A DNA stretch of 64,000 bases from Ruminococcus sp. (GTDB lineage: Bacteria > Bacillota > Clostridia > Oscillospirales > Acutalibacteraceae): NCBI GenBank assembly GCA_045647135.1, contig JAZRMA010000016.1, positions 2,889-66,888 of the forward strand. The letters are read 5' to 3'. Made by a program: the position numbers and the translations under genes. The first letter of the stretch is position 1. Each line of letters begins with the position of its first letter. Under the pieces are notes generated by a model that was not told the DNA's origin, did not search any database, and saw nothing but the letters and a program-made list of their open reading frames with translations. Shown piece after piece: positions 7,102 through 48,564 of this stretch.

Positions 7102-7129
7102 TAGTACCGACGGGCCAAATCCGCCGAAA

Positions 7130-7980: not shown

Positions 7981-8898
7981 TTATCTGATTTTTCTGTAGC
8001 TTGCTTCTTTCTTTTCGAGAAGAGCTACTCTTGCTGCTTCGCCCTTTGCAATCATCATTCCGGGTCCGTAATAATGATGTAAAATCAAAGACTGAACAAA
8101 ACCAAGAACAGTTGAGCAAATCCAATAAAAACCAACTGCTGCAGGAACACTGTAAGAAATGTATGCAGAGAACAGGGGAAGAAGTAAAATCATTAACTTC
8201 ATGCATCCCTGCTGAGGCTGAGGATTACCCTTGCTGTTGAGTCTCTGAATAATAACCTGAGAACCAACAGATGTTACAAAGCTGAGTACAGGAATCATAA
8301 GATACCAGGAAAAACCGTAATCACTGGGTGTTTCCATAAGGTTGAATCCCATAAAATTAAAACTGTCACAGAATCCGCTGATCTGGTCAATAGAAAGACT
8401 TGAATCTGCAAAACAATTTCTTACGGATTCAACATCAAAATACTTCATAATATCAATTTCACTGCCGTAATTAGCGGAAGGAATAATATTAACACCAGGT
8501 ATTGCAATCAATGCATTTTTTGCATTCTCGATAGCTGCACTGTCAAGATGAAGAGTATTTGAAAGCGGATTTGCAACCGCCATATAAACACCAATCATCA
8601 GAAACATTGGAATAAGAGTAGAAAGACAGCCGCCGTAAGGACTAACACCTTCCTGAGCATAGAGTTTTTGAGTTTCTTCCTGAATCTTTTCTTTATTATT
8701 ACCGTATTTTTCGCGGATTTCTCTCTGCTTCGCCTGAAGTCTTGAGTTTTTAGCCATTGTCTTCTGCTGTTTTACAGAAGAAGGGAAAAGCAAAAGCTTA
8801 GTAATGATAGTAAAAATAAAAATAGCAAAAGCATAATTATGTATCAGCTGATAAACAGCCCAGAGTACATAACCAAAAAGGCTTCCTATAAATCCCAT
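7981..8898 (-). CDS. yidC: Membrane protein insertase YidC/SpoIIIJ (housekeeping copy)
   Basis: TKLLLFP, GVSPYGGCL, VPAAVGFYW; canonical rnpA-yidD-yidC-jag order. Start set at MGFIGS. Confidence 0.93.
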   Translation of the reverse strand: MGFIGSLFGYVLWAVYQLIHNYAFAIFIFTIITKLLLFPSSVKQQKTMAKNSRLQAKQREIREKYGNNKEKIQEETQKLYAQEGVSPYGGCLSTLIPMFLMIGVYMAVANPLSNTLHLDSAAIENAKNALIAIPGVNIIPSANYGSEIDIMKYFDVESVRNCFADSSLSIDQISGFCDSFNFMGFNLMETPSDYGFSWYLMIPVLSFVTSVGSQVIIQRLNSKGNPQPQQGCMKLMILLLPLFSAYISYSVPAAVGFYWICSTVLGFVQSLILHHYYGPGMMIAKGEAARVALLEKKEASYRKIR

Positions 8899-8902
8899 AA
8901 GC

Positions 8903-9142
8903 TTAACCTTTCTTTCGGGTCTTTTGTTTTTTCTGCGGTACAGGGTCATAACCGCCTTTTGAAAAAGGATTGCACCGCAAGAATCTCCAAAGTGCCAGAG
9001 CTGTTCCCTTAAAAGCACCGAAGCGTTCTATTGCTTCATACCCATACTGAGAGCAAGTAGGATAATACTTGCAAGCAGGAGGTTTTCGAGGGGAGATTCT
9101 TTTCTGATAAAAACGAATTAATTTAAGCAGAAATTTTTTCAT
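8903..9142 (-). CDS. yidD: Membrane protein insertion efficiency factor YidD
   Basis: [10 protein letters not shown]...[14 protein letters not shown]. Confidence 0.97.
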
Positions 9143-9734: not shown

Positions 9735-9773
9735 ATTAATCCTCCTTTCGGATACATAACCTTGCAATATAGC

Positions 9774-12804: not shown

Positions 12805-13012
12805 TAAAATTATAATTAATGATGAATTTATAAAACTTGACAGTCTTATGAAATTTTCCGGTCTTTGTGCAACAGGCGGCGAAGCAAAACTTCTTATCCA
12901 GAGCGGTCAGGTGCTTGTTAACGGCGAAGTTTGCACAATGAGAGGCAAGAAAATGCGAGATGGAGACAAAGCTCAGTATGGAGATAGAATTGTAGAGGTG
13001 TCTGTTCGTTGA
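12791..13012 (+). CDS. yaaA: S4-domain RNA-binding protein YaaA
   Basis: FIKLDSLMK...GGEAK...VNGE...RGKK; synteny. Confidence 0.92.
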
Positions 13013-14103
13013 AAGTAGTGTCCCTGAAATTTTCCGATTTTCGTAATCTCAAGGACAATATAATATATCCCTGTGAAGAAACAAATGTTATTTATGGAGA
13101 TAATGCTCAAGGAAAAACAAATCTTTTAGAGGCAATATGGCTTTTTTCCGGCGGTCATTCTTTCAGAGGATCGAAAGAAAGTGAACTTACAAAATTCGGT
13201 AGTAAAAATTCACTTATCGAAATGGAATTCGAAAGTCAAGGAAGAAATCAGACTGCGTCCATACTTTTCAGTGGTAATAAAAAGCAAATACATATTAATG
13301 ATGTAAAAAAGTCTTCTTCTGCTTATCTTTCAGAATGTTTCGGTTGTGTGGTTTTTTCACCGGAACACTTGGCACTTGTTAAAAACGGCCCATCACTGCG
13401 ACGCAGATTTATTGACGGAGCAATTTGTCAGCAGAATATTAAATTTGCTGTTTTGCTTTCTCAGTATAATCGTACTCTTGTACAGAGAAATTCTTTACTT
13501 AAAGAAATTTATAAGCATCCTGAACTTAAAGAAACTCTTTGCATTTGGGATGATTCATTAATTTTACTCGGTGCAAAGATAATTTTTAAACGACTTCAGT
13601 ATATAAACAAGTTGAATATTATTGCAAAAGAATATCACTCAGGTATATCAAAAGGAAAAGAAGAACTCCTGATTGATTATATAAGTTCTGCAGGAATTAA
13701 TCTTTCTGATAAAGAAGAAGATATTATACAAAAGCTTAAATCAGGTTTTGAAAAATGCCGAAAAGAAGATATAAAACTTTCATGCACTAATTGTGGCCCT
13801 CACAGAGATGATCTTGAATTTTATATAAATTCTATGAAAGCAAAATCTTTTGGATCTCAGGGTCAGCAGAGAAGTATTGTTCTTTCGCTTAAACTTGCAG
13901 AAGCAAAGATGCTTTGGGAGTATTTTGATGAACCTCCTGTAGTTTTGCTTGATGATGTTCTTTCTGAAATCGATAGAAATAGACAAGAATTTTTACTTGA
14001 TAATTCAAAGGGCTGTCAGACTTTTATTACAGGCTGCGAACCACCTGTAACAGAAGGAGAAAATATAAAAGTTTTTACAATCAGTAATGGTGAGGTTATT
14101 TAA
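13009..14103 (+). CDS. recF: DNA replication/repair protein RecF
   Basis: [31 protein letters not shown]. Confidence 0.98.
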
Positions 14104-14382
14104 ATGTATCTGCATTTAGGACAGGATACAGTAGTATCTGCAGAAACTATAATTGGTATTTATGATATGGATACTTCGACTGTTTCAAAATGGTCAAGAG
14201 AATATTTAAATCGTGCAGAAAAAGAAGGCAGAGTTATAAATGTCTCGTTTTTTGACCTTCCTAAATCCTTTATTGTTTGCAGAGAAACAGAAAATGATAA
14301 TAAGATAGAAAGAGTTTATATAAGTCCTCTTTCAAGTCAGACTCTTTTAAAACGTTTACATAGCTCTCAGCTTATTAAATAA
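14104..14382 (+). CDS. remB: RemB/YaaB (DUF370 family) protein
   Basis: MYLHLG...IIGIYD...KSFIV...YISPLSSQTL; between recF and gyrB. Confidence 0.85.
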   Translation: MYLHLGQDTVVSAETIIGIYDMDTSTVSKWSREYLNRAEKEGRVINVSFFDLPKSFIVCRETENDNKIERVYISPLSSQTLLKRLHSSQLIK

Positions 14383-19932: not shown

Positions 19933-22900
19933 TTAATTTTCGTCAGATATATTATCTGTAGAGGAATCAGAGTCAGTTAAATATATTTCAGCTACTTCAA
20001 CTGTGTCAATAATTCTATTATCCTCAATAAATTCTGAATTTTCTATATTTTCAAATTCTTCAAGATTGAGGGTTTCTTCTATTGTTAAATTATTGGCTTC
20101 TTCAATGATAAAGTATACATCGTCGGAAATTTTTTCTTTTACTGCAGGGTCAAAGAGCCATACAACAGGTTTGGCAAACTTTTTGTTTCTCATAAATTTT
20201 GATGTACATACAGCAAAGAAGATAAGAACAATAAGTGCACCTGCAAAAATTACTGCGCCAAACTTAAAGCCTGCAGGAGTGTAAGAAAACTCAATTGTGT
20301 GCTCACCTTTTGTAAGTGATACACAACACATTCCGCCTTCGCGTGCTTTGTCCATATTTTCCGGTTCTTTTGAATCGGGGTAAATAACACCGAGGGGTAT
20401 AACATCCTGCTCAATGCCGTCAACTTTAACTGTCCAGCCCTTTTCGTAAGGAATAGAGGTGTAAAGAACGCCGTCGCGGTTTGCATAGATTGTACCCTTA
20501 AGCTCTGTGTCGGAGACATGAGTTGTCTGAAGAGTTGACTGCTTTAATACCTCAATACCTCTTCTGTAAACATCCTCGTTGAGATAATAGAGGTGTGCAC
20601 GAATCCAGGAACTTCTCTTGAGATTACCCTGGAATGATACTGTATCACCTTCATTTACTTTACCAATAGCGGCAATATGAGGTTGCTCAATATTAATTTC
20701 GCGAAGCTGAGTGCTGTTTATGCTGATTTTTCCTTTTCCTTCAGGACCGCTTATATAGAAGAAAGAATATACATAACCCTCTTTTGGTACTTGGAAATTG
20801 TATTTAACATTTGTTGTGCCGGAGGTTGTATAGCCGATTTCCATTCCGTCGGAATATTTAACAGAAGGATCTACATTATGCTCTGTTGATGTTTTTTCAA
20901 TAGGAGTGTAAAGAGGCTCTTCTATTCCTGTAGCTTTTCTCCAAAAATCAATCTGATTTTCAAAGGGATTTACATAAGCCTCAGAAGGATCCGAATTTGC
21001 ATCGAGCTGTTTATTTTTGTCGTTTGTTTTTGGAAGTTCAAAATTCTCGAGTTCTTTGTTTGCAAGGAAGCCCATATTAATGTAATCTGTGTTTTCGTAA
21101 AGAGTTACATTACCTGCTGTATCAGACATCTGCATAAAAGGTTCGCCATAACTCTTGCCGCTTCTTGCAATAAGGTAACGGATATTAAAAAGCACGTTGG
21201 TTACGGGAGATGAATCGTAATATGTGTAACGGTTACCGCCTAAATATCCTGCACCGCCCATATCACCAAAGTATTTGTTGAATGTGGCATTTGCCATGGA
21301 ATTGAACATGGAAAGACCATTGTAATCATAGATAGAACCATCATTGAGGGTATATGCATTTGTAGTCTCAATTCGGTAAATATCGGGAGTTTCGGTTTCT
21401 TTTCTTGCTTCAATTCTTTCTAATAATAGAGTTATATTTTCTTTTTCTGTAGGATATCCGATTTTTGTAGTAGAACCAACGGTGTCAACACTGACAATAG
21501 TGGTAACACACATTTCGCCCATAACAATCAGACAAAGGAAAACCGAAAGAAACCGCTTTGGTACAAGTTTAAGAACATATAGCAGTATGGCTGCAATCAT
21601 AAAGACGCCTATAATTATACATGCTGTGAATATATTCTCGTTAAAAGGTGTGCGGTTTGTAGTGCCGTCTTCTACTACTATAAATTTTCTGAAATAGTAA
21701 AGAAGGATAAACATGGAGAAGACAAGAGTTGTGATGATAACATCAATGTAGTTGCTGTCTTTAAGAACAAGATATGCTCTGTAACCCATATAAATAATAA
21801 GGAAACTGAAGAGGAAACTGAATCTGTAAGGCAGCATATTGGGATAATGGAATCCGTGCCACATAAAGTCAAGTCTTCTGAAAATAAAACTGATTACAAA
21901 GAACATTAAAGTAGAAACACAGAAAATCTTTTCGCCTTTTTTAATTTTCTTTGAGCAGAAGAATATACCAAGAAGAACAAGACAAAGAAGTCCACAACCA
22001 ATATTAGGCATACCTTCTGTTGAAGTAGGAGATATAAACGAAAGAGCATTGCTGAGTATTTTATGGAAAGCATCAAGCACACCTGCGGTGTTATCTGTAC
22101 CAATGTTGATGTCAAAACCTTTAGGCATACCTGTTGTCTGCTTATAGCAGTTTTGCAGAGCAAGGTAAGCAGGTATGGTAACTATGGCAGTCAACATAAG
22201 AGAAATCCCTGCACTGATTGCTGTACGAAGAAGGTCTTTTGCTGCTTTTCTGAGGCTTACCCAGCAGGATGCTGTATAGCCGATAGCAGTAAGGAATACT
22301 GCAACACAGATGAAAAGACCGATGTAATAGTTGAAAATAACAGAGAGAGCAAGGGAAATAATGAAAAGTTTGTACTTGCCGTCACGAAGCAGACAAACTG
22401 TGCCTGCAACTACCAAAGGAAGCATTGCCACAGAGTCAAGCCAGATAATGTTCCAATAATAACCCATATTAAAGGAACAAAGGGCAAACATTGTTGAGAA
22501 AAATACCGTTGCAAGACTGCATTTTTTGAAAATAATCTTAAAGCAGATTGCTGTAAACATTCCTGCAAGAGAAAGTTTGATTACGGTTGCAACTACAATG
22601 TAGCTTGAAAGAACATCCGAAGAGAAAAATGCAGAACAGAAGTTGAGAGGGCTGAAAAGGTAGTAAGATCCCATTGCAATAAAGTTTACACCCATACCCA
22701 CAGACCAGGTCCAGAAAAGTGAACCGCCGGACTGGAGTTTATCGTGTAATTCTACAAGGAATGGGAAGTACTGATGCCACATATCAACAACGTGCATCTG
22801 TTGTGTACCCCAGGGATTTTCAGTTTCAACATAAACATCTATACCAATAAGGTCACTGAACTGGTACAGAATATAGTTGACGCCGGTTTTAAGAATACCG

Positions 22901-23058
22901 AAAGGTGCCACATTCTCAACAGCAAAGCCGATAGCAAGAAGCACAAAGGGAATAATAAAAGAAAGTGCTATGAACTTGCCCGAACCGTCGCCTTTTGAAC
23001 GGGCGTTTTTAATAAGAGTTTTCATAGTGGGGAATTTGGCGGATTTTGCCTTGACCAT
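19933..23058 (-). CDS. YfhO-family polytopic glycosyltransferase (GT-C type)
   Basis: DMWHQYFPF, YYLFSP, WHGFHYPNMLPYRFSF, TSIPYEKGWTVKVDG; many TM helices. Confidence 0.9.
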   Translation of the reverse strand: MVKAKSAKFPTMKTLIKNARSKGDGSGKFIALSFIIPFVLLAIGFAVENVAPFGILKTGVNYILYQFSDLIGIDVYVETENPWGTQQMHVVDMWHQYFPFLVELHDKLQSGGSLFWTWSVGMGVNFIAMGSYYLFSPLNFCSAFFSSDVLSSYIVVATVIKLSLAGMFTAICFKIIFKKCSLATVFFSTMFALCSFNMGYYWNIIWLDSVAMLPLVVAGTVCLLRDGKYKLFIISLALSVIFNYYIGLFICVAVFLTAIGYTASCWVSLRKAAKDLLRTAISAGISLMLTAIVTIPAYLALQNCYKQTTGMPKGFDINIGTDNTAGVLDAFHKILSNALSFISPTSTEGMPNIGCGLLCLVLLGIFFCSKKIKKGEKIFCVSTLMFFVISFIFRRLDFMWHGFHYPNMLPYRFSFLFSFLIIYMGYRAYLVLKDSNYIDVIITTLVFSMFILLYYFRKFIVVEDGTTNRTPFNENIFTACIIIGVFMIAAILLYVLKLVPKRFLSVFLCLIVMGEMCVTTIVSVDTVGSTTKIGYPTEKENITLLLERIEARKETETPDIYRIETTNAYTLNDGSIYDYNGLSMFNSMANATFNKYFGDMGGAGYLGGNRYTYYDSSPVTNVLFNIRYLIARSGKSYGEPFMQMSDTAGNVTLYENTDYINMGFLANKELENFELPKTNDKNKQLDANSDPSEAYVNPFENQIDFWRKATGIEEPLYTPIEKTSTEHNVDPSVKYSDGMEIGYTTSGTTNVKYNFQVPKEGYVYSFFYISGPEGKGKISINSTQLREINIEQPHIAAIGKVNEGDTVSFQGNLKRSSWIRAHLYYLNEDVYRRGIEVLKQSTLQTTHVSDTELKGTIYANRDGVLYTSIPYEKGWTVKVDGIEQDVIPLGVIYPDSKEPENMDKAREGGMCCVSLTKGEHTIEFSYTPAGFKFGAVIFAGALIVLIFFAVCTSKFMRNKKFAKPVVWLFDPAVKEKISDDVYFIIEEANNLTIEETLNLEEFENIENSEFIEDNRIIDTVEVAEIYLTDSDSSTDNISDEN

Positions 23059-23215
23059 ACACAAAAACCTCCCGTAAATTAATAGGATTTCTGCATAAAT
23101 AAAACTTATTTATACACATAGATATACATATTAATTATAACACGAGAATGTATAAAGGTAAACTCTTTTTAATAAAAAGATAAAAATTATTTTATGCAAT
23201 ATTAATCGGATTTCA

Positions 23216-23244
23216 TAGACTTTTTGTTTTGTTGATGTTATAAT
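23216..23244 (+). promoter_or_regulatory. SigA promoter of the GT2-gtrA operon
   Basis: TAGACT-17 bp-TATAAT with extended -10 TG. Confidence 0.65.
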
Positions 23245-23299
23245 ACTTTTAGGTATGTAATTCAGGTTACTGAATATTCTGATACGAGGTGAAGGAATA

Positions 23300-24244
23300 A
23301 TGAAAACTGTTGATATTGTAGTACCTTGCTATAATGAAGAAGAAGTACTTCCCGAATTTGTAAGGGTGACAAACGAGGTTATCGCAACTCTGCCCGAGTA
23401 CAGCTTCCGCTATATTCTTGTAAACGATGGCAGTAAAGACAAAACCCTCTTAACAATGATAAAACTCGCAGAACAGTTTGAGAATGTAAAGTATATTTCT
23501 TTTGCAAGGAATTTTGGCAAAGAGGCTGCTATGTATGCAGGACTTGAGCATACAACTGCTGACCTTGTAATTGTTATGGATGCAGACCTGCAGCATCCCC
23601 CTGCAATGTTCCCCGAGATGCTCAAAGGTATCGAAGAGGGTCACGATTGCTGTGCTCTTTACAGAGAAGAAAAAGAGAGAAAAGACGGTCTCCTTCGTCG
23701 CGGCTTCTCTAAGCTCTTCTTCAAGATGCAGAATTCTATGTCTTCCGTAAAAATGCCCTACGGTGCAGTTGACTACCGAGTTATGACAAGACAGATGATT
23801 GACTCTATCCTTTCTCTTTCCGAGGTACAGAGATTTTCCAAGGGTATTTTCTGCTGGGTAGGCTTTGACACAAAGTGGATTCCTTACGAAAATGTTGAGA
23901 GAACAATCGGTACATCAAGCTGGAGTTTCTGGGGGCTTTTCAAGTATGCCATTGACGGAATCACTTCTTTCTCGGTTTCTCCTCTTAAGTTTATCTTTGT
24001 TTTGGGAATTCTGATGTTCTTCGGCTCAATTTTAGGTATGCTCGGCATTATTATCGAAGCTCTTGTTACAGGAGATTTTGGCTCAGGTTATGCTACAATT
24101 GTTTGTGTAATGCTGTTTATTGGCGGACTTATTGAGCTTTCTATCGGTATTATCGGTGAGTATCTGGGAAGAGTTTACATCGAAACAAAGAAAAGACCCA
24201 TTTACATCGCAAAGGTTAAGAACATCGAAAAAAACGAGAAATAA
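23300..24244 (+). CDS. GT2 undecaprenyl-phosphate glycosyltransferase (GtrB/CsbB-like)
   Basis: VPCYNEE, NDGSKD, RNFGKEAA, DADLQHPP, two C-terminal TMs, GEYLGRVY...KRP. Confidence 0.93.
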   Translation: MKTVDIVVPCYNEEEVLPEFVRVTNEVIATLPEYSFRYILVNDGSKDKTLLTMIKLAEQFENVKYISFARNFGKEAAMYAGLEHTTADLVIVMDADLQHPPAMFPEMLKGIEEGHDCCALYREEKERKDGLLRRGFSKLFFKMQNSMSSVKMPYGAVDYRVMTRQMIDSILSLSEVQRFSKGIFCWVGFDTKWIPYENVERTIGTSSWSFWGLFKYAIDGITSFSVSPLKFIFVLGILMFFGSILGMLGIIIEALVTGDFGSGYATIVCVMLFIGGLIELSIGIIGEYLGRVYIETKKRPIYIAKVKNIEKNEK

Positions 24245-24246
24245 TT

Positions 24247-24852
24247 ATGGAAAAATTACTTAACGTCTATAAGAAACACAAAGAAATAATTAATTATATA
24301 ATCGTCGGCGGTCTTACAACATTAGTCCGTTGGGGAACAACTGTTATTTTTGAAAATCTGTTTGCAGGATTTATGAGCGAGGGAGTACTTCGCGACACTC
24401 TTATCACAGCAGTTTCCCTTATTATTACAATTCTCTTTGCCTTCCCGCCAAATAAGCTTATTGTTTTTGAGAGCAAGAGTTTTTGCAAGAATATTGTAGG
24501 CATTGAGTTTATTGCCTTTATTTCTGCAAGAGCGGCGGCAAGTATTATTGAGCTTGTGGGTATTCCGCTTATCTGCGAGGTTACCTCAATGAACATCACT
24601 GTGGCAACAATGATAGTAAGTGTTGTTGTGTTGGTGGTAAACTACATCTTCAGCAAACTTTTTATCTTTAAAAACAGAGAAGGTAAAAAAGATAAGAAAG
24701 ACAAAAAAGATAAAAAGGGAGAAAAAGAATCTCTCGGCAAAAGAGCAAAGGACAAGCTTATCGGCACAACCCTTATAGTTATCTGCTCTGTAGTGGCTGT
24801 TGTTTCTATCTCGTTCTGGGTAGTTGATACCATCTCTAAAATTTTTGGATAA
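24247..24852 (+). CDS. GtrA-family flippase with extra C-terminal TM
   Basis: YIIVGGLTTLV, NKLIVF, VVNYIFSKLFIF. Confidence 0.85.
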   Translation: MEKLLNVYKKHKEIINYIIVGGLTTLVRWGTTVIFENLFAGFMSEGVLRDTLITAVSLIITILFAFPPNKLIVFESKSFCKNIVGIEFIAFISARAAASIIELVGIPLICEVTSMNITVATMIVSVVVLVVNYIFSKLFIFKNREGKKDKKDKKDKKGEKESLGKRAKDKLIGTTLIVICSVVAVVSISFWVVDTISKIFG

Positions 24853-36910: not shown

Positions 36911-37438
36911 TTATTTTTTTATTTTGATGCGTTTAAAGATAAGGCAAAGAAGAGTACCGCCCACAATACCTGCGATTCCCTGAAATACATTAGGAAGAAC
37001 AGATGGAAGAGCACCTGCGGCACCGTAGCCCAAGAGGTATGCTTCGAATACAAAGTAGCCTCCAACCATTACTGTTTCGGCACAAACGGCGGCAAAGACT
37101 ATGAAGATAATGGAAAGACCTTTGCTTTTGTCCGCAAGATTTTTTACTGCATAAAGCACAAGACCTGCAAAGAGAGCCATCAGGGCTTTAATTACCAAAG
37201 TACCCGGTGCATACTGGGCATAACCCATAAGAATGTCTGCAAGCATAGAGCCGATACCTGCTGCCAGAGCTGCATACAGAGGAGAGAGCAGGAATGCCGC
37301 AAGAATAATTACCACATCACCCAGATTAACATAACCGCCTGTGGGTGTTATTGCGAGTTTTATAAATGTTGCAACACAGCACAAGGCTGCCAGAAGAGAG
37401 GCGGTGACTAAATTTATAAGATGAGATTGTTTTTTCAT
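36911..37438 (-). CDS. ECF transporter S component, probably for vitamin B6 (inferred from the neighbouring regulator)
   Basis: PTGGYVNLGD, GIGSMLAD, PGTLVIKA; about 6 TMs; divergent from a MocR/PdxR gene. Confidence 0.8.
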   Translation of the reverse strand: MKKQSHLINLVTASLLAALCCVATFIKLAITPTGGYVNLGDVVIILAAFLLSPLYAALAAGIGSMLADILMGYAQYAPGTLVIKALMALFAGLVLYAVKNLADKSKGLSIIFIVFAAVCAETVMVGGYFVFEAYLLGYGAAGALPSVLPNVFQGIAGIVGGTLLCLIFKRIKIKK

Positions 37439-37470
37439 ATTGTAAATCCTCCTTTATGTCCGAGCATTAT

Positions 37471-37514
37471 TATACAGCAAACTGAACATATTGAAATATT
37501 CAGTTTGTTATAAT
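37471..37514. promoter_or_regulatory. Inverted-repeat operator between the ECF-S and MocR genes
   Basis: TATACAGCAAACTGAA-12 bp-TTCAGTTTGTTATATA (16-bp arms, 2 mismatches). Confidence 0.65.
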
Positions 37515-37547
37515 ATAATAATACCAGATTTACTTTGGAGGAAAAAT

Positions 37548-38948
37548 ATGCTAACTTATATTTTGGATAAGTCTACAAAGAGAACTCTTACAAAACAGCT
37601 TTACGAGAGGATAAAAAGGGATATACTTACGGGAAAACTTCTGTCAGGAGAAAAACTTCCGTCAAAACGTGTGCTGTCTGAGCATCTAAAAATAAGTGTG
37701 ATTACAGTAGAAAATGCTTATGAGCAACTTTTGGCGGAAGGCTATATTTTTTCAAGAGAGCGCAGCGGATATTATGTCAGTCAGATAGACACAATGTGGG
37801 TTGCAGAGAGCAACACAACTCACCATATCGGACAGCCTTCTGCAGAAAAAGCAGAAGATGACTTGATTATGGATTTTAAGACAAACAGAATATGTGATTC
37901 GGGATTTCCTTGCACGGTTATGTCAAAAATAATGAGGCAGGTGCTTGCAGAAAAAAGAGGACTGCTGGAACCCTTAGAGTTTTGCGGGGTTAAAGAACTA
38001 AGAGAAGCAATATCAGGGTACCTGTACAGATTCAGGGAAATATCAGTAAGTCCCGATCAGATAATCGTGGGTGCAGGTACGGAATACTTGTATCATCTTA
38101 TTATTCAGCTTCTGGGCAGAGATAAGTGCTATGCTCTGGAAACACCGGGGTATAACAAAATTGCAAGAATTTATGAGTGTAACAACGTATCTTACAAATA
38201 TGTACCGGTAGATAAGGAAGGTTTTTCTGCAGAACATCTTAAAAAGACGGATGCACAGATAATACATATTTCTCCGACACATCATTTTCCGACGGGTGTT
38301 GCTATGCCGATCAGGCGCAGACAGGAGCTGTTGCACTGGGCAGGAGAATCGGAAGACCGATATATTATAGAAGATGATTATGACAGTGAGTTCAGGTTTT
38401 CGGGTCATCCCATTGCTCCTTTGATTAGTCTGGATGCAAAGAAGGTAATTTATATTAATACTTTTTCAAAAAGTATTACCCCTGCGGTACGAATAAGTTA
38501 TATGATATTGCCCGAGGAGCTTATGGAGAAATACAAAAAAAGTATGAGTTTCTATTCTTGTTCTGTTTCGGGAATTGATCAGTATTTGTTGGCAAGGTTT
38601 ATTAGTGAAGGATATTTTGAACGGCATATAAATCGGATGAAGACTCAATACAGAGCAAAGCGGGATGCGTTGATAAAGGCGTTGAAAGAGAGCAGCTTTT
38701 CCTCAGAGATTGAAATATCCGAAGAGGATGCAGGGTTACATTTTTTGATGAAAATAAAAACAGATATGTGTGACGATGAATTTTGCCGCAGGGCATATCA
38801 GAGGGGAATAAGAGTGGCTTTTTTATCTGAATATATGCAGGGGTTCGGCGAAGATGAGCAACATACTTTGGTTATAAATTATTCGGGGTTAGAGGAAGAG
38901 AATCTTCAAAAAGCCATAAAAGCTTTAGCTCGGGTGTTAGAACAATAA
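37548..38948 (+). CDS. MocR/GabR-family (PdxR-like) PLP-dependent regulator
   Basis: GntR wHTH (GEKLPSKR...TVENAYEQLLAEGY) plus aminotransferase domain (IEDDYDSEF, TFSKS); start after GGAGG. Confidence 0.92.
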   Translation: MLTYILDKSTKRTLTKQLYERIKRDILTGKLLSGEKLPSKRVLSEHLKISVITVENAYEQLLAEGYIFSRERSGYYVSQIDTMWVAESNTTHHIGQPSAEKAEDDLIMDFKTNRICDSGFPCTVMSKIMRQVLAEKRGLLEPLEFCGVKELREAISGYLYRFREISVSPDQIIVGAGTEYLYHLIIQLLGRDKCYALETPGYNKIARIYECNNVSYKYVPVDKEGFSAEHLKKTDAQIIHISPTHHFPTGVAMPIRRRQELLHWAGESEDRYIIEDDYDSEFRFSGHPIAPLISLDAKKVIYINTFSKSITPAVRISYMILPEELMEKYKKSMSFYSCSVSGIDQYLLARFISEGYFERHINRMKTQYRAKRDALIKALKESSFSSEIEISEEDAGLHFLMKIKTDMCDDEFCRRAYQRGIRVAFLSEYMQGFGEDEQHTLVINYSGLEEENLQKAIKALARVLEQ

Positions 38949-38989: not shown

Positions 38990-39880
38990 TTAAACATCGT
39001 AGGTTTTGTCAAGCTTTTTAAGCTCGTTGTATGTATCGATTTCGATGATATCGTCGAAGGAGCACTCTCTTACATAAATTTTGTATTCGTCCTTAAAATA
39101 TTCCAGTGCTACCTGGTCCCAATATCTTTCTTTACCGCCGGGAGACTGGAATACCTGCTTGATGTGTCCAACAAGACGGGATCCGTCTGCTTCGTCCCAG
39201 TAAGAAATACCGAACATATGGTGGCAGTTTGTGCCGCCTACAAGGAGTTTCTTGATAACACCGCTGTCGTTGGTTTCGAAGCACCAGTCGTCAGTTTTAT
39301 CAACAGGTACACCGAGGTAGTTGGAGTGATACTGATATTTTGTGATGAGCTTGGGGTTGTAGAGCACAAGGTCGCCCTCAAGCACATAAGCATTCTTTAA
39401 GAGGTAACTTGCACAAACAGCGGAAGAAATGTTGTTTGCTTCGTTATACTGGGGATTTTCGATGAACTTGATCATAGGATAATCATAAAGAAGCTGGTCG
39501 AACTGTTCTGCAAGATATCCTCTTACAATGTATATTTCGTTGATACCTGCAGCAACAACAGCATCAAGAAGGGTTGTGATGATACGCTTGCCGTTAACTC
39601 TTATGAGGGGCTTGGGTGTGTTGAGGGTAACGGGTACCATTCTTGAACCAAAGCCTGCTGCAATAAAGATGGCTCTCTTTACTCTGTAAGGTTCAAGAGC
39701 ATCAAGACCTGCGGCGGTAATTACACCGTCCTCAAGATAACCCATAGCGGTAAGCTCGGAAAGACACTTGTTTACTGTGCCGACAGACATTTTTGTTTCT
39801 GTTGCGATTGTTCGCTGGGGAATGGACTTGTGCTTATCGGAAAGAAACACAAGTACATCAAATTGTTTTTTGGAAATCAT
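38990..39880 (-). CDS. Winged-HTH fused to LicC-like cytidylyltransferase (CTP:phosphocholine or phosphonate type)
   Basis: N-terminal QRTIATETKMSVGTVNK HTH; AAGFGSRM...PKPL, NNISS, EGD, YWD and EIDT motifs. Confidence 0.85.
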   Translation of the reverse strand: MISKKQFDVLVFLSDKHKSIPQRTIATETKMSVGTVNKCLSELTAMGYLEDGVITAAGLDALEPYRVKRAIFIAAGFGSRMVPVTLNTPKPLIRVNGKRIITTLLDAVVAAGINEIYIVRGYLAEQFDQLLYDYPMIKFIENPQYNEANNISSAVCASYLLKNAYVLEGDLVLYNPKLITKYQYHSNYLGVPVDKTDDWCFETNDSGVIKKLLVGGTNCHHMFGISYWDEADGSRLVGHIKQVFQSPGGKERYWDQVALEYFKDEYKIYVRECSFDDIIEIDTYNELKKLDKTYDV

Positions 39881-39964
39881 AATAACACCGTTTCCTTATT
39901 TATATTTAGTGAGTATTTTTGAACATTCGAAAGTGAAAAACAAAGGTTTTTTTGAGCAAATAAA

Positions 39965-39992
39965 CCCTCTGCAGCAAATTTTTTGCAGAGGG
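39965..39992 (-). terminator. Hairpin downstream of the small TM-protein gene
   Basis: CCCTCTGCA-loop-TGCAGAGGG, followed by TTTATTT on the minus strand. Confidence 0.7.
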
Positions 39993-40025
39993 CATATTTT
40001 ATTTGATTTTTGAACAAAGGGAGAT

Positions 40026-40268
40026 TTAGTTTTCCTTTTTGTTTGTTTCTGCTGTCATAACGTCAGCGGTTTCACCAAAACCGCCTGTGAGCTCGCCTTC
40101 AACCTCTTTGTTGCGGTTTTCGTCGATACCCAGCTTTTCGCTTACCTTGTGCTTAACGCGACGAAGATAAACAGCGATAACAGCACCGATTGTAACAGCA
40201 GCACCTGCAACAGCAGCAAATACCATTGACATAGTAGCGGCATCGATATATGCATTAAAATTAATCAT
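40026..40268 (-). CDS. Small single-pass membrane protein (80 aa) with N-terminal AYID motif
   Basis: GGAGG RBS, own promoter and terminator; one hydrophobic helix followed by RRVKHK. Confidence 0.85.
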   Translation of the reverse strand: MINFNAYIDAATMSMVFAAVAGAAVTIGAVIAVYLRRVKHKVSEKLGIDENRNKEVEGELTGGFGETADVMTAETNKKEN

Positions 40269-40308
40269 TATAAATTCCTCCGGATTTTAAACTTAAATGA
40301 ACACCAAC

Positions 40309-40337
40309 ATTATAATTTAGTGTGCACAAAAAGTCAA
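40309..40337 (-). promoter_or_regulatory. SigA promoter of the 80-aa gene
   Basis: TTGACT-17 bp-TATAAT. Confidence 0.75.
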
Positions 40338-40360
40338 TTATAATCGAATAAATTGCGGTT

Positions 40361-42466
40361 TTATTTTGAGTTTTTCTGATTTTGTTTCTCGAGAATACGG
40401 TTGTAAATATATTTTGCACCGGCAAGACCGCTTTCGCCAACATTGTAGATGTTGCGGTTAAGAGCCTCGGTAATCTGTTTTTCGTACTTTTCGGGATTAC
40501 TGAGAAGAGTTGCAACTACATCGGGCACGGTAGCAAGATTTTCTTTGTCCAGAGAGATACCAACCTGATCTTTCCAGGAAATTTCTGTGGGAACAAGAGG
40601 AATCTTTTTGTAGTTGGGGTTGAGCACCTTCATGGGTGTGTTTATGAACATAGAAGGTTTCTTGGTAGCGTAAGAGAATTCGTAAGCGATACCTGACCAG
40701 TCGGTAATGAGAAGGTCGGATTCCCAGATTGTGCGGTTGGAGGAGAAGTCCATTTCGATAACAAAATCGTCGCCGTCACAGCCTTCGTATTTCTTAACGA
40801 TAGCATCCATCTTTGCGGGGAAGCGCTTGATGTATTCGGGATGGGGACGAAGGATAACCTTGTTGCCTTTGTGGAGAAGTCCCTCCATAAGCTCGTCAAG
40901 GCAGTACTCGAGAATGTTATCTTCCTGCCAGGAGGGAGCAAGAAGAATCTGCTTTTTGTCCTTCTTTACCTGCTCCATCTTATCGTACATCTTGCAGAGG
41001 TTATCAATAAGACCGAATCCTACAGGCACAAGAGTTTTCTCGGGGAGGTTGTAGAGCTTCTCGGTAGCGCGGATTTCGTCTATATGATGAGGACCTACAC
41101 AGAAGATTGTGTCAAAGTGGTCATAAGCGCCCTCGCGTACACACATGGTGGTACTTGTGGGGCCGTGGAAAGTGTAGATATACTCAACATCTTTTCTTAC
41201 ATAAGAGCGTTTGATGTAGTATTTTTCAAGGTCGGGAGTTGTCATAAGAACTATATCTGCATCTATCTTCATCATAAAGGTGATGATTTTCTTGGGTCCG
41301 ATATAGTAGGCACGAATGCGGTTGTTTTCCTCTGCTTTTTTGAAGATCGCATCGTTCGGATCGTTTGTTACATAGTGAATGGTGAGAGCTGTGTTTTTGA
41401 GGAGCTCATTGATAATATTCTCAAAGTATTTGTAGAAACCGCTCTTCTCTGAGTAAATAACAAGCTTTTTATTAACAATCGAGAAGAAGCGTTTGTAGTC
41501 TGCTTTTTCTCTCTTGGAGTTTTCGTCCTTTTTAAAGAATCCGTTTTTGCTCTTTGTATCCAGAGCCTCAATTGCGGCAAGCTCTTTGCGGCTTGCTTCC
41601 AGCTCTTCGTAGTCAACATACTTTTTGGGAGGTATAATTGTATTGAGGAGCAGAAGCTGAAGGATAGCAAAGAGATTACTTGCAACCCAATAGAGTGCAA
41701 TACCTGCAGGAACAAAGAAGCCGAGGTAAAGAGAAAGACCAACAGAGAACACCATTGTGCCGTATTTATTACCCTTGCTCTGTTCTGCCTGAAGAACATT
41801 GATTTTGTTCTGAATAAAGCAGAGAAGCCAGGAGGAAAAACCTGCAATTACGGGAGAGAGTACATAAATAAGCTCGTCACCCATTACCTGAGAGGGTGTA
41901 GCAGAAAGGTCAAGGCCCAAAAACTGAAGGTCGAAATCCTTTGCGTTCTCAATAGCGGTTTTGCCGTCATTGCTTTTTGCAATATCTGCAAAACTTTCGG
42001 GGTTGCTCTTTATTGCGTGCATAGAGTCAATCTCCACAGAGTTCGACTGAAGGTCTGCCTGTGCAGTTATGTTGATTTCGTTTCTGACAGGTTCGGGAGT
42101 TTTGAAAATATAGGTAAAGGGATGATAGATAACAGCCACAACACCTAAGAGAAGTATAATCTGAATAACAAGAGGAATCAGACTTGCAAAAGGATTGTAC
42201 TTTTGCTTTTTGAACATAGCATTCTGTTCTTCGCCGATTCTTTCTTTATCGCCGTAGAATTTTGCTTTGAGTCTGTTGATAGCAGGCTGGATTTTAACGA
42301 TTTTGATTGCGTTTTTGTGCACCCAGATGCCAACAGGCAGAAGAATTACCTTTGTGATAAGAGTAAAAAAGATAATTGCAAGGCCATAGTTGGAAACCAG
42401 AGAGTGACAAAATTCCATAACATATCCAAGCGGAATAGCGAGCCAGGACGTAATGGTATCAAACAT
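40361..42466 (-). CDS. Fusion protein: YidC/Oxa1 insertase domain plus TagB/TagF-like CDP-alcohol phosphotransferase domain
   Basis: N-half: NYGLAIIFFTLITKVILLP, NPFASLIP, FLGLDLS, VPAGIALYWVASN. C-half: TFHG, ILLAPSW, LRPHP, SDLLITDWSGIAYEF. Confidence 0.88.
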   Translation of the reverse strand: MFDTITSWLAIPLGYVMEFCHSLVSNYGLAIIFFTLITKVILLPVGIWVHKNAIKIVKIQPAINRLKAKFYGDKERIGEEQNAMFKKQKYNPFASLIPLVIQIILLLGVVAVIYHPFTYIFKTPEPVRNEINITAQADLQSNSVEIDSMHAIKSNPESFADIAKSNDGKTAIENAKDFDLQFLGLDLSATPSQVMGDELIYVLSPVIAGFSSWLLCFIQNKINVLQAEQSKGNKYGTMVFSVGLSLYLGFFVPAGIALYWVASNLFAILQLLLLNTIIPPKKYVDYEELEASRKELAAIEALDTKSKNGFFKKDENSKREKADYKRFFSIVNKKLVIYSEKSGFYKYFENIINELLKNTALTIHYVTNDPNDAIFKKAEENNRIRAYYIGPKKIITFMMKIDADIVLMTTPDLEKYYIKRSYVRKDVEYIYTFHGPTSTTMCVREGAYDHFDTIFCVGPHHIDEIRATEKLYNLPEKTLVPVGFGLIDNLCKMYDKMEQVKKDKKQILLAPSWQEDNILEYCLDELMEGLLHKGNKVILRPHPEYIKRFPAKMDAIVKKYEGCDGDDFVIEMDFSSNRTIWESDLLITDWSGIAYEFSYATKKPSMFINTPMKVLNPNYKKIPLVPTEISWKDQVGISLDKENLATVPDVVATLLSNPEKYEKQITEALNRNIYNVGESGLAGAKYIYNRILEKQNQKNSK

Positions 42467-42518
42467 ATATCATACCTCCGTTTTGTAAGGGACAAAAGCC
42501 CATAAGTATACATCATAT

Positions 42519-42547
42519 ATTATAACCCAAGAGAGGTACGGTGTCAA
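42519..42547 (-). promoter_or_regulatory. Consensus SigA promoter of the YidC-fusion gene
   Basis: TTGACA-17 bp-TATAAT. Confidence 0.8.
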
Positions 42548-42703
42548 TTGTAGACGAACACAGCAAAAGAGCGGAGATGTCCGAAGGGAATGGTAATTTT
42601 GACAATACACCCGAAAAAATTGTAATAATTGTGTTGTTGAAAACCAGGGTCGGATATGATATATAAAGTATATAAAATGAATTTATAAACAGGAGATATA
42701 TAT

Positions 42704-43948
42704 ATGGAAGGAAAAACAAAGCGTCTTACCATAATCTTTGCGTTGATAATGGTGTTTATTTTTGTGCTTGTTCTGGTTTTCGGTCTTGTCGGAAAAAACA
42801 AAGGGGACGATAGTGCAGAGAATGTGACCGAACGCACAACCGAGGTGGTTACAGAGGAAGTTTTTGCTACTCAGAAAGAGGAATTTGTTGAGCCTGAAGA
42901 AAAAGATACTCTTACGCTTTCTTTTATCGGTGACTGTATTATCGGTAGCGAATCGGGTAAAATCAACGATGGTAATTTTTCTTATATGGCGGCAAACTCT
43001 CCTCATACCTATTTCTTTGAGAAGGTAGTTAGTGAACTTTCAAAGGACGATTTTACAATTGCAAATATGGAGTGTGTTATTACCGACCGAGACCTTGAAA
43101 AGATCGGCAAGGACTATGACCCTGCTTTCTGGTACAAAACACCTACCTCCAATACGGATATACTCACTCTGGGCTCGGTAGAGGTTACAGGTATTGTTAA
43201 TAATCATATTGGCGACTATGGTGATGACGGTTATGATGATACTGTTGTGGCACTTAAATCTCATGGTTTGCAGGTGGGCGAAAACCTTAAGCCCCTTTAC
43301 ATAGAGAAAAACGGAATTAAAATCGGACTTCTCTGCTGTAACCTTTGGAGCAGTTACAATGTTTCTTATATAGAAGAAGCTTTGGAGACTATGCAGGATG
43401 AGTGCGAGTATAAGATTGTATTCTTCCACGGCGGCGAAGAAGGAATCCATGAGCCTGATAACTATAAAATAGATGCTTGCAGATATTTGGCAAATTCGGG
43501 ACTTTGCGACCTTATCGTAGGCAGTCATCCCCATGTGCTTCAGCCTATGGAGGTTGTAAACGATGTGCCCATCCTTTATTCCTTGGGTAATTTCTGCTAC
43601 TCAGCTGCGAATTATCCCGATAATCAGACTGTGATTTTCAGAGTAGAGCTTAAAAAGGAAGAAAATAAGATTAATACGGAAACAGATCTTATTCCTTGCT
43701 ATGTGTACACAGGATATATGAATAATTATCAGCCTATGATTATGCCTGAAGGCGAGGACAGAAAAAATACTCTGGCACTTATGAACAGCAAGGTTCAGTA
43801 CAGAGTAGAAACAACATCCTCTGAATTGGAGCCTACAACAGAAGAGCCTACTTTACCGCCCATAGAAACTCTGCCTGCTGACGACTCTGTGCAGGATGAT
43901 TACTATGGAGACGAAGATGGATTCCAGGGTGTGCCCATGCCTTATTGA
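42704..43948 (+). CDS. CapA/PgsA-family membrane-anchored metallophosphoesterase
   Basis: N-terminal TM; GD, NME, NNHIGDYG, HGG, GSHPH, YSLGNF motifs. Confidence 0.88.
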   Translation: MEGKTKRLTIIFALIMVFIFVLVLVFGLVGKNKGDDSAENVTERTTEVVTEEVFATQKEEFVEPEEKDTLTLSFIGDCIIGSESGKINDGNFSYMAANSPHTYFFEKVVSELSKDDFTIANMECVITDRDLEKIGKDYDPAFWYKTPTSNTDILTLGSVEVTGIVNNHIGDYGDDGYDDTVVALKSHGLQVGENLKPLYIEKNGIKIGLLCCNLWSSYNVSYIEEALETMQDECEYKIVFFHGGEEGIHEPDNYKIDACRYLANSGLCDLIVGSHPHVLQPMEVVNDVPILYSLGNFCYSAANYPDNQTVIFRVELKKEENKINTETDLIPCYVYTGYMNNYQPMIMPEGEDRKNTLALMNSKVQYRVETTSSELEPTTEEPTLPPIETLPADDSVQDDYYGDEDGFQGVPMPY

Positions 43949-44045: not shown

Positions 44046-44121
<76 letters not shown>

Positions 44122-46459: not shown

Positions 46460-47200
46460 TTATTTGAACATAGAAACAGGGTCGATACCGCTTTCTTTGG
46501 AGGCGGCAGACGCACACACTACATAAACATCACCAATTTTGCAACCGAATACGCTGACATTTGCATTTTCGGTGGTTGCATCAACCTTGTAGTATTTTTC
46601 ACCACCAAAGGAGGCAGAACCTGTTTCGGAATTTGTCAGGTCAAGTCCGAAGGATGAGGTTGCAAGTAACTCTACGGATTCTTCCAGATTTTTGTCCTTA
46701 AGGTCTGCGTTGTTTGCATCGAGCAGCATAACAATAACGTTTGCATCAAGGATGTTGTCACTTGATACAAGCTGAGCGTACATATCGTAAACAACACCAG
46801 ATGTCTTTAAAGTGGACGCAAGCTTGTCGTTTTTAAGGTCAGCCTCTGTAACGCCTAACAAAGTGGCTATATCAGCATCGCTTAAAAAGTTCCACTTTTC
46901 GTCAGCGGTAAAGGAAAGACCCGAGAATGCGCTCATATAGATGTTGTCGGAAACAGTACCGCGGAAAATTTCTGTTTCGCCTGCTTCGATTACAGCCCCG
47001 CCTTCGGGAAGAGTAGTGTCAGCGGTGGTTGTGGGAGCAGTAGAAGGGGCAGTGGTGGTAGTAACAACGGCATCGGTTGCAGGAGCTGTTGTTTCGGGAG
47101 CGATAGTTGTGGTTGTGTTCTCGTTTGAGTTGTCTTTGCCGCAGGCTGCAAAAGAAAGGAGCATCATAGCAGCAAGAAGAATTGCAAATAATTTTTTCAT
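46460..47200 (-). CDS. Lipoprotein (paralogue 3) with Thr/Pro linker
   Basis: Lipobox FAA-C; motif RG-x4-NIY...W-x-F shared with neighbours. Confidence 0.82.
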   Translation of the reverse strand: MKKLFAILLAAMMLLSFAACGKDNSNENTTTTIAPETTAPATDAVVTTTTAPSTAPTTTADTTLPEGGAVIEAGETEIFRGTVSDNIYMSAFSGLSFTADEKWNFLSDADIATLLGVTEADLKNDKLASTLKTSGVVYDMYAQLVSSDNILDANVIVMLLDANNADLKDKNLEESVELLATSSFGLDLTNSETGSASFGGEKYYKVDATTENANVSVFGCKIGDVYVVCASAASKESGIDPVSMFK

Positions 47201-47240
47201 TTCGTATTTCCTCCGTTTTTATTTAATATTATCCGAAATA

Positions 47241-47852
47241 TTATCCGAAGCAAGCTTCACAATCTGCTACGGTGTATTCGTCAGTACAAGCGGCAACAAT
47301 AAGAATGGTTGCACTTGCTTTTTTTCTGCCGTAAAAGGTAGCATAGCCTGTGGCTCCGGTATTTGTTTTTGTTGTGGCGCAAAGTCTGAGGTAAGTTTCG
47401 CCGCAGAGGTTAACCTCTTCGCTTGTAATGCCTGCGCTTGTGTCCAGTGTGGTTTCTCCGATCATAGCGCGAAGAAGCTCATCTGTGTTTGAAAAATTTT
47501 TAAATTCCTCGTGGTTGTTGTTTACAAAAAGCACACCCACAGAGTGAGTTCCGTCCGAGGAATAGCAGGTCATATCGTATGCTATTCCGATTTCGTCGAA
47601 GATTTCGTTGAGCCTTTCGGAGTCAAGGAGCTTGCCTGCGTGCTCTGTGTTGGAGAGAAGCTCTTCGTTGGATGCAAAGGTCCAGTCTGACGGGGCTGTG
47701 TAGGTGAGGTCTGCAAAGGAGTTTGTATATACTCTGTTTTCTGTTTCTCCTCGTACAAGCATTGCTTTGGCAGAATCATCTCCGTTATCTTTACAAGCAC
47801 AAAGGGATAGGATAAGCAAAAGACACAGCATAGCTGAAAGAAGTTTTTTCAT
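47241..47852 (-). CDS. Lipoprotein (paralogue 2)
   Basis: Lipobox LCA-C; RGETENRVYTNSFADLTYTAPSDWTF. Confidence 0.82.
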   Translation of the reverse strand: MKKLLSAMLCLLLILSLCACKDNGDDSAKAMLVRGETENRVYTNSFADLTYTAPSDWTFASNEELLSNTEHAGKLLDSERLNEIFDEIGIAYDMTCYSSDGTHSVGVLFVNNNHEEFKNFSNTDELLRAMIGETTLDTSAGITSEEVNLCGETYLRLCATTKTNTGATGYATFYGRKKASATILIVAACTDEYTVADCEACFG

Positions 47853-47955
47853 ATTTTGGCCTCCTTATTACAATAGAAAGTTTAGCACTCCCTTTAAAAT
47901 AAGTCAACTGCACACTTTAAGAAAAATCGGGCAGGATTATTCCTGCCCGAAAAAG

Positions 47956-48564
47956 TCAGCTTAGCATTGAGTCAAAGTCAATTAATTCTGCGTTGATTGA
48001 AGGTACGGTTGCATAAATCTGCACCATATAATCGTCAACACCTCGCAGATAAACATACTTGGTTAAGGGGTTGTTTTTGTCTTGAATTTCAATAGTTACT
48101 TTTATGTAAGTGTTGCCGCCGATTGTGATTTCGCTTTCGTCAATAAATGTAGAATATGGGCTGTATTCAAGAGCAGCCTGAAGCACATCGGTTACATATT
48201 CTTTGGCAGTCAGGGTCTTGCCCGCAGTTGCGGTTAAGTTTTCAAAGGCAATATATATGCTGCCGTTGGTGCGGTGATCAACAGCCATCATATCGAATTC
48301 TTCACCTTGAATCTTGACTGCATCCTGAGGAAGAAATTCCCAACCGTCAGGTTTTGTGAGGGTAAGGTTTAAATAGGCGTTTTTGTATACATTGCCGTTT
48401 ATTTCACCTTTTGTGGGGTCTTTCGGTGTTTCTGAGGCTAAGCTGTTGGTTACATAATTGGTTGCGTGATTGTGATTGTCACCGCTTGAGCTTAGCTGAT
48501 TGTTGCAGCCCGTAAGGAAAAAAACAATCAGCATAGAAAAAATAACAGGTAAAAACTTTTTCAT
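47956..48564 (-). CDS. Lipoprotein (paralogue 1)
   Basis: Lipobox LTG-C; KGEINGNVYKNAYLNLTLTKPDGWEF. Confidence 0.82.
   Translation of the reverse strand: MKKFLPVIFSMLIVFFLTGCNNQLSSSGDNHNHATNYVTNSLASETPKDPTKGEINGNVYKNAYLNLTLTKPDGWEFLPQDAVKIQGEEFDMMAVDHRTNGSIYIAFENLTATAGKTLTAKEYVTDVLQAALEYSPYSTFIDESEITIGGNTYIKVTIEIQDKNNPLTKYVYLRGVDDYMVQIYATVPSINAELIDFDSMLS

Follow-up and report, generated by a model that had tools for sequence, protein, structure and literature searches.

A YidC-TagF fusion gene and its neighbours

The DNA analysed here is a window of 64,000 nucleotides from a Ruminococcus sp. assembly (GCA_045647135.1, 2.06 Mb, 87% complete; contig JAZRMA010000016.1, positions 2,889 to 66,888). 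The gene at 40361..42466 on the minus strand encodes, in one open frame, a 701-amino-acid protein in which a YidC-type membrane insertase is joined to a TagF-like transferase. An earlier note on the window had described this frame as uninterrupted, with a YidC front and a TagB/TagF rear, and both parts indeed score above the Pfam cut-offs: 60KD_IMP (PF02096) at residues 27-275 with 109 bits (cut-off 35) and Glyphos_transf (PF04464) at residues 330-607 with 49 bits (cut-off 22.1). The NCBIfam YidC model TIGR03592 gives 105 bits for the fusion (cut-off 84.3), and in databases such proteins go by the plain name 'membrane protein insertase YidC'. In its AlphaFold2 model (mean pLDDT 86), the fusion displays the helix pattern of YidC, followed by a two-lobed alpha/beta domain. 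The YidC domain, with five transmembrane (TM) helices and a cytoplasmic helix pair, is encoded by 41642..42388 and the TagF-like GT-B domain (residues ~330-697) by 40376..41479, both on the minus strand.

Two further genes lie downstream on the same strand. The first (40026..40268) encodes an 80-amino-acid peptide with one hydrophobic peak and a single TM segment, a candidate head-group carrier. The second (38990..39880) encodes a candidate donor-activating enzyme of 296 amino acids, with a winged helix-turn-helix (HTH) domain and a LicC/PntC-type cytidylyltransferase domain (HTH and NTP transferase in Pfam). A PGA_cap (CapA-type) metallophosphoesterase of 414 amino acids with an N-terminal TM segment is encoded divergently (42704..43948, plus strand). 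All three neighbours had been named in the earlier note and are present where it had put them.

The fusion, the peptide, the cytidylyltransferase and two unlinked genes for LtaS-like membrane proteins form one co-inherited module. It is a real, conserved four-part envelope module that is assembled from known folds and matches no known system. We consider it highly probable that the module decorates the cell surface with phosphonate or phosphate head groups.

Occurrence and co-inheritance

The concern that the fusion might be an assembly artefact can be dismissed. A protein search scored 8000 candidates and matched 5400 of them; of the 120 homologues listed, 117 carry both Pfam domains, and the best is 92% identical over the whole length. 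In a genome scan, 580 of 599 candidate stretches were confirmed and 79 loci were returned, the closest named ones from Oscillospiraceae and Ruminococcus assemblies; the locus counts given below rest on 80 fusion loci. An even sample of 301 Clostridia genomes, of which 300 could be scored, contained the fusion in 5 genomes including the source genome; within the family of the source genome, 7 of 151 genomes had it. The fusion is common in gut Clostridia but patchy. A plasmid tblastn search with its C-terminal half gave no match. One genome carries two divergent copies of fusion plus peptide (L001 and L063), which are 92% and 53% identical to the window fusion. At another locus (L031:10001-12040) the fusion match has no single long open reading frame, a sign of breakage or mis-assembly; nearby are two peptide-sulfatase fusions.

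The peptide has no match to any Pfam or NCBIfam family. A profile built from its sequence cluster finds it in 79 of the 80 fusion loci, the exception (L079) being a contig that ends inside the fusion. Where both genes are whole, the peptide lies at most 350 bases from the fusion in 65 of 70 loci. The same profile detects the peptide in 8 genomes of the Clostridia sample, including all 5 with the fusion and one in which it is fused to a TagF-like gene.

The next commonest neighbour is a family of LtaS-like membrane proteins of ~580 amino acids, with a match in 54 of the 80 fusion loci. All 7 fusion-bearing genomes of the 151-genome family sample have an LtaS-like gene and none of the other 144 does, figures that are counts over related, non-independent genomes and not a statistical test. 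Where the fusion locus lacks an LtaS-like gene, one was found elsewhere in 20 of 22 searched genomes; four further genomes in that search had the gene in the locus, and three partner-less loci were left out. The source genome has two such genes, both unlinked to the fusion: G000:C17:48211-49944 on the plus strand (locus L180) and G000:C7:24187-25959 on the minus strand (locus L181). Their products are likely the outer partners of the fusion. The co-occurrence that had been predicted for small YID-motif genes, LicC/PntC-type enzymes and sulfatase/LTA-synthase-like genes was borne out.

The module parts also recombine. Fused forms include YidC-TagF-sulfatase, sulfatase-YidC-TagF, signal peptidase-YidC-TagF and peptide-sulfatase proteins, and in some loci a signal peptidase is fused or adjacent. 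In other Clostridia, the stand-alone TagF-like gene opens with the Y-I-D-P-TM module of the peptide in 23 of 23 cases, and these peptide-TagF genes adjoin a YidC-like-sulfatase protein of ~900 amino acids. All parts can also be separate genes, as seen in 80 metagenome loci with a stand-alone TagF-like gene. Among the 23 metagenome loci of at least 10 kb, the peptide is present in 22, a LicC-like gene in 17, a sulfatase match in 11 and a YidC gene in only 8. These counts identify the peptide and the TagF-like enzyme as the tightest pair, and a private YidC as common but not seen everywhere.

CapA follows a different pattern. The earlier note had included it in the system, a role that the family sample does not support. 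Of the 80 loci, 11 have CapA next to the fusion, and in each of these the fusion is at least 70% identical to that of the window. Among the family genomes, the closest CapA matches (43% and 39%) come from genomes that lack the TagF-like gene, and no CapA match was found in 5 of the 6 relatives that carry the fusion. We judge CapA to be a neighbour and not a module part. The idea that it stands in for an LtaS-like partner was rejected as well.

These data also bear on another reading, the one nearest to the literal wording of the earlier note, in which the peptide receives a single modification, is inserted and itself becomes the end product shown at the surface, while CapA processes or recycles it. 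Besides the adjacency of CapA in those 11 loci, this reading has on its side a strong promoter-like site of the peptide gene itself (a sigma-70 consensus match of 11/12 at 40309..40337, minus strand), which is kept in 9 of the 11 closest loci and in 13 of 70 loci overall. Such sites are pattern matches only, and the search found 13 of them in the region versus 11.8 in shuffled sequences. The reading fits poorly with CapA homologues in genomes without the module, with the absence of CapA matches in most fusion-bearing relatives, with the exact co-occurrence of the LtaS-like enzymes, and with the many genomes in which the peptide is part of a TagF or LtaS-like enzyme. We regard it as very improbable.

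The TagF-like domain

The C-terminal half had been assigned to the TagB/TagF fold, and both profile and structure comparisons agree. The best structural matches in Foldseek are TagF, TarL and Cps3D, and VIA-align superimposes the domain on TagF with a Z score of 20.6 and an rmsd of 5.3 over 337 aligned residues. Profile comparison with canonical TagF-like proteins aligned 326 columns at a probability of 99.1. The two histidines of the TFHG (H434) and RPHP (H542) motifs, already noticed in the sequence, are invariant in 50 and in 71 homologues and in 122 of 122 module enzymes. They align with the canonical WHG and (R/K)xH histidines, presumably corresponding to H444 and H584 of TagF. The 122 module enzymes form a clade of their own (122/122, support 0.98), apart from 38 canonical sequences, a comparison set taken from one family and chosen by the WH[AG] motif.

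Like TagF, TagB, TarL and Cps3D (PF04464; PDB 3L7K, 8VA1, 8QOY), the module enzyme has a GT-B fold and both histidines. It differs by its fusion to YidC or to the peptide and by its LicC/PntC-type and phosphonate-related neighbours. We consider it likely that the module enzyme makes a single transfer and does not polymerise. Two canonical TagF-family (PF04464) genes are present among polysaccharide genes elsewhere in the source genome (G000:C29:5323-9626), a possible acceptor polymer locus.

The YidC domain

The housekeeping yidC of this genome, which serves as a reference point outside the system, is located at 7981..9018 on the minus strand, in the gene order rnpA-yidC-jag near dnaA (neighbour names read from translations). 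Its presence had been noted earlier, with an end at 8898 that corresponds to an internal ATG start. The fused YidC domain shares 26% identity with the housekeeping protein, and the fusion lies outside the rnpA-yidC-jag locus.

The five-TM core and the cytoplasmic helix pair are apparent from the helix pattern of the AlphaFold2 model and from hydropathy. Residue K39 aligns with R366 of E. coli YidC, the positive groove residue, and a lysine is found at this position in 70 of 71 fusions. The groove positions Q102, Y259, W260, S263, N264 and Q270 are kept. In E. coli, R366, S520, N521 and Q527 are described as groove residues in the sections consulted of a YidC study (PMC8920935). The fused domains also contain an invariant loop specific to their clade, QNxxxVLQxEQ. 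In the YidC-sulfatase forms, the charge at the R366 position is lost (N, Q or S) and a lysine is gained at the Q527 position in 26 of 26 sequences; in these fusions (L080-L092 and L186-L194) the groove charge is shifted from TM1 to TM5. The fused domain has the YidC/Oxa1 core, and insertase activity is predicted. It shares the five-TM core, groove charge and groove polar residues with the YidC/SpoIIIJ/Oxa1 insertases, and differs from them as a second copy that is fused to an enzyme.

A canonical groove would suit a YidC that acts as a private chaperone and does no more than insert the peptide and the polytopic LtaS-like enzymes, with the TagF-like domain modifying a lipid-linked glycan that is exported by a normal flippase. 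TagB modifies a lipid-linked glycan in the cytoplasm, and the canonical TagF-family polymer genes of the source genome could supply such a glycan. The lack of YidC in 15 of the 23 long metagenome loci also speaks for this reading. However, a housekeeping YidC is already present, no role is left for the outward-facing transferase that co-occurs exactly, and YidC is fused now to the inner and now to the outer enzyme, which suggests one complex across the membrane. We consider this explanation improbable, although less so than display of the peptide as an end product.

The peptide and its invariant tyrosine

The window peptide consists of a short N-terminal tail with Y7-x-D9, a TM helix, a basic patch and an acidic tail. 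The tyrosine is kept in 71 of 71 aligned peptides (taken from the profile matches, none of which failed the motif check), in the 120 profile matches listed and in all 23 peptides found via the TagF domain alone. Metagenome peptides have it in 50 of 52 sequences, the other two being gapped at that position, and it is never replaced by phenylalanine in any set. The aspartate of Y-x-D is present in 48 of the 52 metagenome peptides. Tyrosine is the one invariant residue of the peptide. The basic patch and the positive-inside rule suggest that it faces outside once the peptide is inserted.

Two N-terminal forms occur. In 35 of the 71 peptides the tyrosine follows a short tail of 2-16 residues, and in the other 36 it follows 23-29 signal-peptide-like residues, with a signal-peptidase-type site right before the tyrosine in 34 of these 36. 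The same two shapes, short N-tail and signal peptide, are those of the classic YidC clients Pf3 coat and M13 procoat. A weak match to an inovirus coat protein was obtained for 1 of the 71 peptides (E 6.5e-4) and was not taken as homology.

Two other acceptor sites in the peptide were considered. A conserved Ser/Thr eight positions from the tyrosine was rejected because glycine replaces it in 5 of 125 sequences and further variation occurs in metagenome forms. A free N-terminal amine was discounted on the ground that none of the 23 peptide-TagF fusions has a signal-peptidase site ahead of the tyrosine. Complex prediction for the fusion with peptide residues 1-62 gave a best score of 0.27 against a mark of 0.32 and was counted neither way. 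A signal-peptide-form peptide in genome G141 (L178:3636-5239) has no TagF-like or YidC gene within 14 kb; it adjoins an unrelated 465-amino-acid gene and polysaccharide genes, and perhaps has a different partner set.

The LtaS-like proteins

The C17 protein, the only one of the two that was folded, is modelled (pLDDT 90) with five long N-terminal helices and an alkaline-phosphatase-type domain. Residues D213, T250, H400, H405, D457 and H458 are invariant in 43 sequences of the family. The best sequence match is LtaS and the best fold matches are PbgA/YejM; no NCBIfam match was found for the family at E 1e-10. The threonine aligns with the position of the nucleophilic cysteine in phosphonate monoester hydrolase. 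The module partners thus share five predicted N-terminal helices, the metal-ligand pattern and the invariant threonine with LtaS, EptA (MCR-1) and PbgA/YejM, but form a separate family that goes together with a TagF-like enzyme of the cytoplasm and a peptide. The known members draw on bulk phospholipids. One to five LtaS-like copies accompany a single fusion, which suggests one supply line serving several acceptors.

Cytidylyltransferase and head group

The cytidylyltransferase of the window matches Streptococcus pneumoniae LicC over the whole domain (E 1e-31). The pocket and metal residues of LicC (W136, Y190, D192, E216 and D218) are kept, and LicC D105 is replaced by glutamate, as in PntC of Treponema denticola. 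LicC and PntC cannot be told apart by the aromatic box; according to PMC6697681, the PntC of A. rimae, which prefers 2-aminoethylphosphonate (AEP), also keeps it. In phylogeny, four members of the clade of the window enzyme are encoded inside AEP operons, and two sister enzymes adjoin an importer of the GlpT/PgtP type (major facilitator superfamily, MFS). Relative to the Lic and Pnt pathways (LicC, PDB 1JYK; PntC, PDB 6PD1), the module thus has in common the LicC match and a clade with AEP-operon members. It differs in that neither licA nor ppm was found in the source genome and in that its attaching step is not LicD. A LicD-like protein, so identified by reading of the translation, is encoded elsewhere in the genome (G000:C19:54489-55340) and could draw on the same cytidylyltransferase.

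The donor genes beside the module vary. Among the 80 fusion loci, gene clusters of phosphoenolpyruvate (PEP) mutase (22), phosphonopyruvate decarboxylase (23) and AEP transaminase (20) were counted, with a further count putting PEP mutase in 24 of the 80 loci, and there are 5 cytidylyltransferase-choline kinase fusions. When 23 genomes were chosen for a locus without donor genes, 3 had PEP mutase and 1 a choline kinase match. A metagenome locus (L110:192-8517) encodes a methylphosphonate synthase (E 1.7e-196 to PDB 6B9S), and similar proteins occur in L100, L149 and L174. In these four AT-rich contigs, the peptide, the TagF-like enzyme and the cytidylyltransferase lie beside the methylphosphonate synthase, together with PEP mutase or decarboxylase, Fe-ADH and sulfatase-like genes; no YidC match was found in any of the four. 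In three other loci (L103, L116 at 5307-14119, and L162) the module is beside a PPDK-like kinase, a C26 amidotransferase and a nucleotidyltransferase, a gene set that suggests a phosphoramidate cargo. The pair of PPDK-like kinase and C26 amidotransferase resembles the Campylobacter phosphoramidate pathway. A phosphonate ABC importer gene is located near the module in L158. The donor genes are thus swapped while the module stays, and the neighbouring donor genes are all for activated phosphorus-containing head groups.

For the source genome, with neither PEP mutase nor choline kinase found, the simplest assumption is a substrate taken up with its phosphorus already bound, hence scavenged AEP. 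We favour scavenged AEP as the cargo by a little over an even chance, with phosphoethanolamine or phosphocholine ranked next. Glycerol and choline, which had been suggested as head groups, are not favoured here, given that no choline kinase was found. One Phosphonate-bd match in the source genome was considered as an AEP importer and not accepted, being weak (E 1.6e-10) and partial; no importer was identified in this genome.

Proposed mechanism

From the four parts, with their folds, catalytic residues, co-inheritance and fusions, we infer the flow of the head group. In the first step, a scavenged amino-phosphonate or amino-phosphate, AEP being the most likely, would be converted by the cytidylyltransferase to the CMP conjugate, in keeping with the family of the enzyme. 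The TagF-like domain, with its two histidines, would then transfer the head group in the cytoplasm to the hydroxyl of the peptide tyrosine. The charged groove of the fused YidC may carry the short loaded N-tail outward, probably repeatedly. On the outside, the head group would move to the threonine of the LtaS/EptA-like enzyme and from there to a surface polymer, possibly the canonical TagF-family polymer of the source genome. The peptide would thereby replace the phospholipid donor of the known LtaS/EptA enzymes.

The argument for a carrier is that an inner enzyme using CMP-activated donors and an outer enzyme needing a membrane-bound donor require something between them. The peptide fits this gap, being anchored by its TM helix and bearing a single irreplaceable hydroxyl close to the outer face, and a private YidC would explain how its short tail crosses. 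A protein-carrier pathway had been proposed in the earlier note. It is still the best single reading, but was incomplete: the exact co-occurrence of the LtaS-like enzyme indicates that the pathway does not end at the inserted peptide. The one-way order in which the peptide is modified and then inserted also fits poorly with the peptide-TagF fusions (23 of 23), which favour a reusable shuttle; when the peptide is part of the enzyme, single use would consume one enzyme per head group, and a cycle is more plausible.

Covalent carriage of the head group by the peptide tyrosine is, in our estimate, about evenly balanced between true and false. The fuller proposal is tentative and falls below even: YidC would act as a cycling transporter of a tyrosine-loaded peptide arm, and this lipid-free relay would supply the attachment machinery that is missing for aminoethylphosphonate in gut Clostridia and for methylphosphonate in marine microbes.

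Several observations weigh against such a relay. The predicted topology places the tyrosine outside and the TagF site inside, so that a cycle needs return of the tail through YidC, and we know of no precedent for YidC moving a tail back in. To our knowledge, TagF-family acceptors are polyol or sugar hydroxyls and never phenols, and all characterised LtaS/EptA-type donors are lipids. On structure alone, UDP-GlcNAc 2-epimerases (Z 20.0) are tied with TagF as matches of the C-terminal half. YidC is scarce in the long metagenome loci, and in 2 of the 8 peptide-positive genomes (G141 and G183) no partner gene was found in the stretch examined. The source genome, at its 87% completeness, gave no match for PEP mutase, for choline kinase (LicA) or for the MFS importer seen beside the sister cytidylyltransferases. 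Finally, according to PMC8920935, pairing with the groove charge is not a requirement for a negatively charged client tail.

The known chemistry of TagB/TagF acceptors and of LtaS/EptA donors agrees better with a lipid as the carrier. In that case, the TagF-like domain loads a lipid or lipid-linked sugar, the YidC-peptide complex lets the lipid cross, and for the LtaS-like enzyme it is a lipid donor of the usual kind; the peptide serves as a structural subunit whose tyrosine binds or gates. The same co-occurrence and fusions are accounted for. A CDP-alcohol phosphatidyltransferase motif is present in only 1 of the 80 loci, and the TagF-like enzyme could therefore itself be the lipid-loading step. 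A lipid carrier explains less directly why the tyrosine never becomes phenylalanine, why a signal-peptidase-type site precedes the tyrosine in 34 of 36 long forms, and why a signal peptidase is fused or adjacent. We hold it to be unlikely, though a closer contender than a private chaperone, and prefer the peptide relay.

The proposed relay resembles in logic the Dlt pathway (DltB, DltX, DltD) for D-alanylation of lipoteichoic acid, and the likeness is confined to this proposed logic. According to the sections consulted of PMC13721041, a tyrosine on the small membrane protein DltX relays the group between a cytoplasmic donor and an outer enzyme. There, an acyl group is transferred via an MBOAT protein, whereas a phospho or phosphonyl transfer via YidC is proposed for the module. 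No MBOAT/Dlt family match was obtained for the four window proteins or the 71 peptides.

Most bacterial phosphonate synthesis is thought to serve cell surfaces, and the steps that follow activation to the CMP conjugate are stated by Rice et al. (2019; PMC6697681) to remain unknown. For Selenomonas, phosphonate clusters that contain multiple sulfatases have been noted, in passages that mention neither YidC nor a glycerophosphotransferase (10.1101/2021.04.07.438883). The module adjoins operons for aminoethylphosphonate, genes for methylphosphonate synthase, choline kinase fusions and phosphoramidate-like genes, and its parts can therefore be put to the test as candidates for head-group attachment. 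The methane of oxygenated ocean water is proposed to derive from methylphosphonate on surface polymers. Should the peptide be the carrier, it would represent a new route for an activated group across the membrane and a new job for YidC. Our literature search, whose coverage excluded most subscription journals and all supplements (Rice et al., phosphonate inventory), found no description of the module; even with a lipid carrier, it would be a four-part machine without description in the literature searched.

Regulatory features and flanking genes

The fusion gene is preceded by a full sigma-70 consensus match (12/12 at 42519..42547, minus strand), which like the site before the peptide gene is a pattern match only. 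A hairpin at 39965..39992, listed for the plus strand, lies between the peptide and cytidylyltransferase genes and is a possible terminator. No structured RNA element was listed for the region.

Just 3' of the capA-like gene is a tRNA-Thr(GGT) gene (window 44046-44121), with small variable genes beyond it. Further along, at 46460-48564, three tandem genes encode lipoprotein-like proteins of 202-246 amino acids, a family that is found near the fusion in close relatives only. On the other side of the module, a gene for an energy-coupling factor (ECF) S-component is divergent from one for a GntR-aminotransferase (MocR-type) regulator (36911-38948); this pair probably serves vitamin B6 uptake and is unrelated to the module. 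At 19933-24852, a gene for a YfhO-family membrane protein is divergent from a GT2 gene and a gene for a 201-amino-acid membrane protein, a trio that looks like an ordinary three-part surface glycosylation set.

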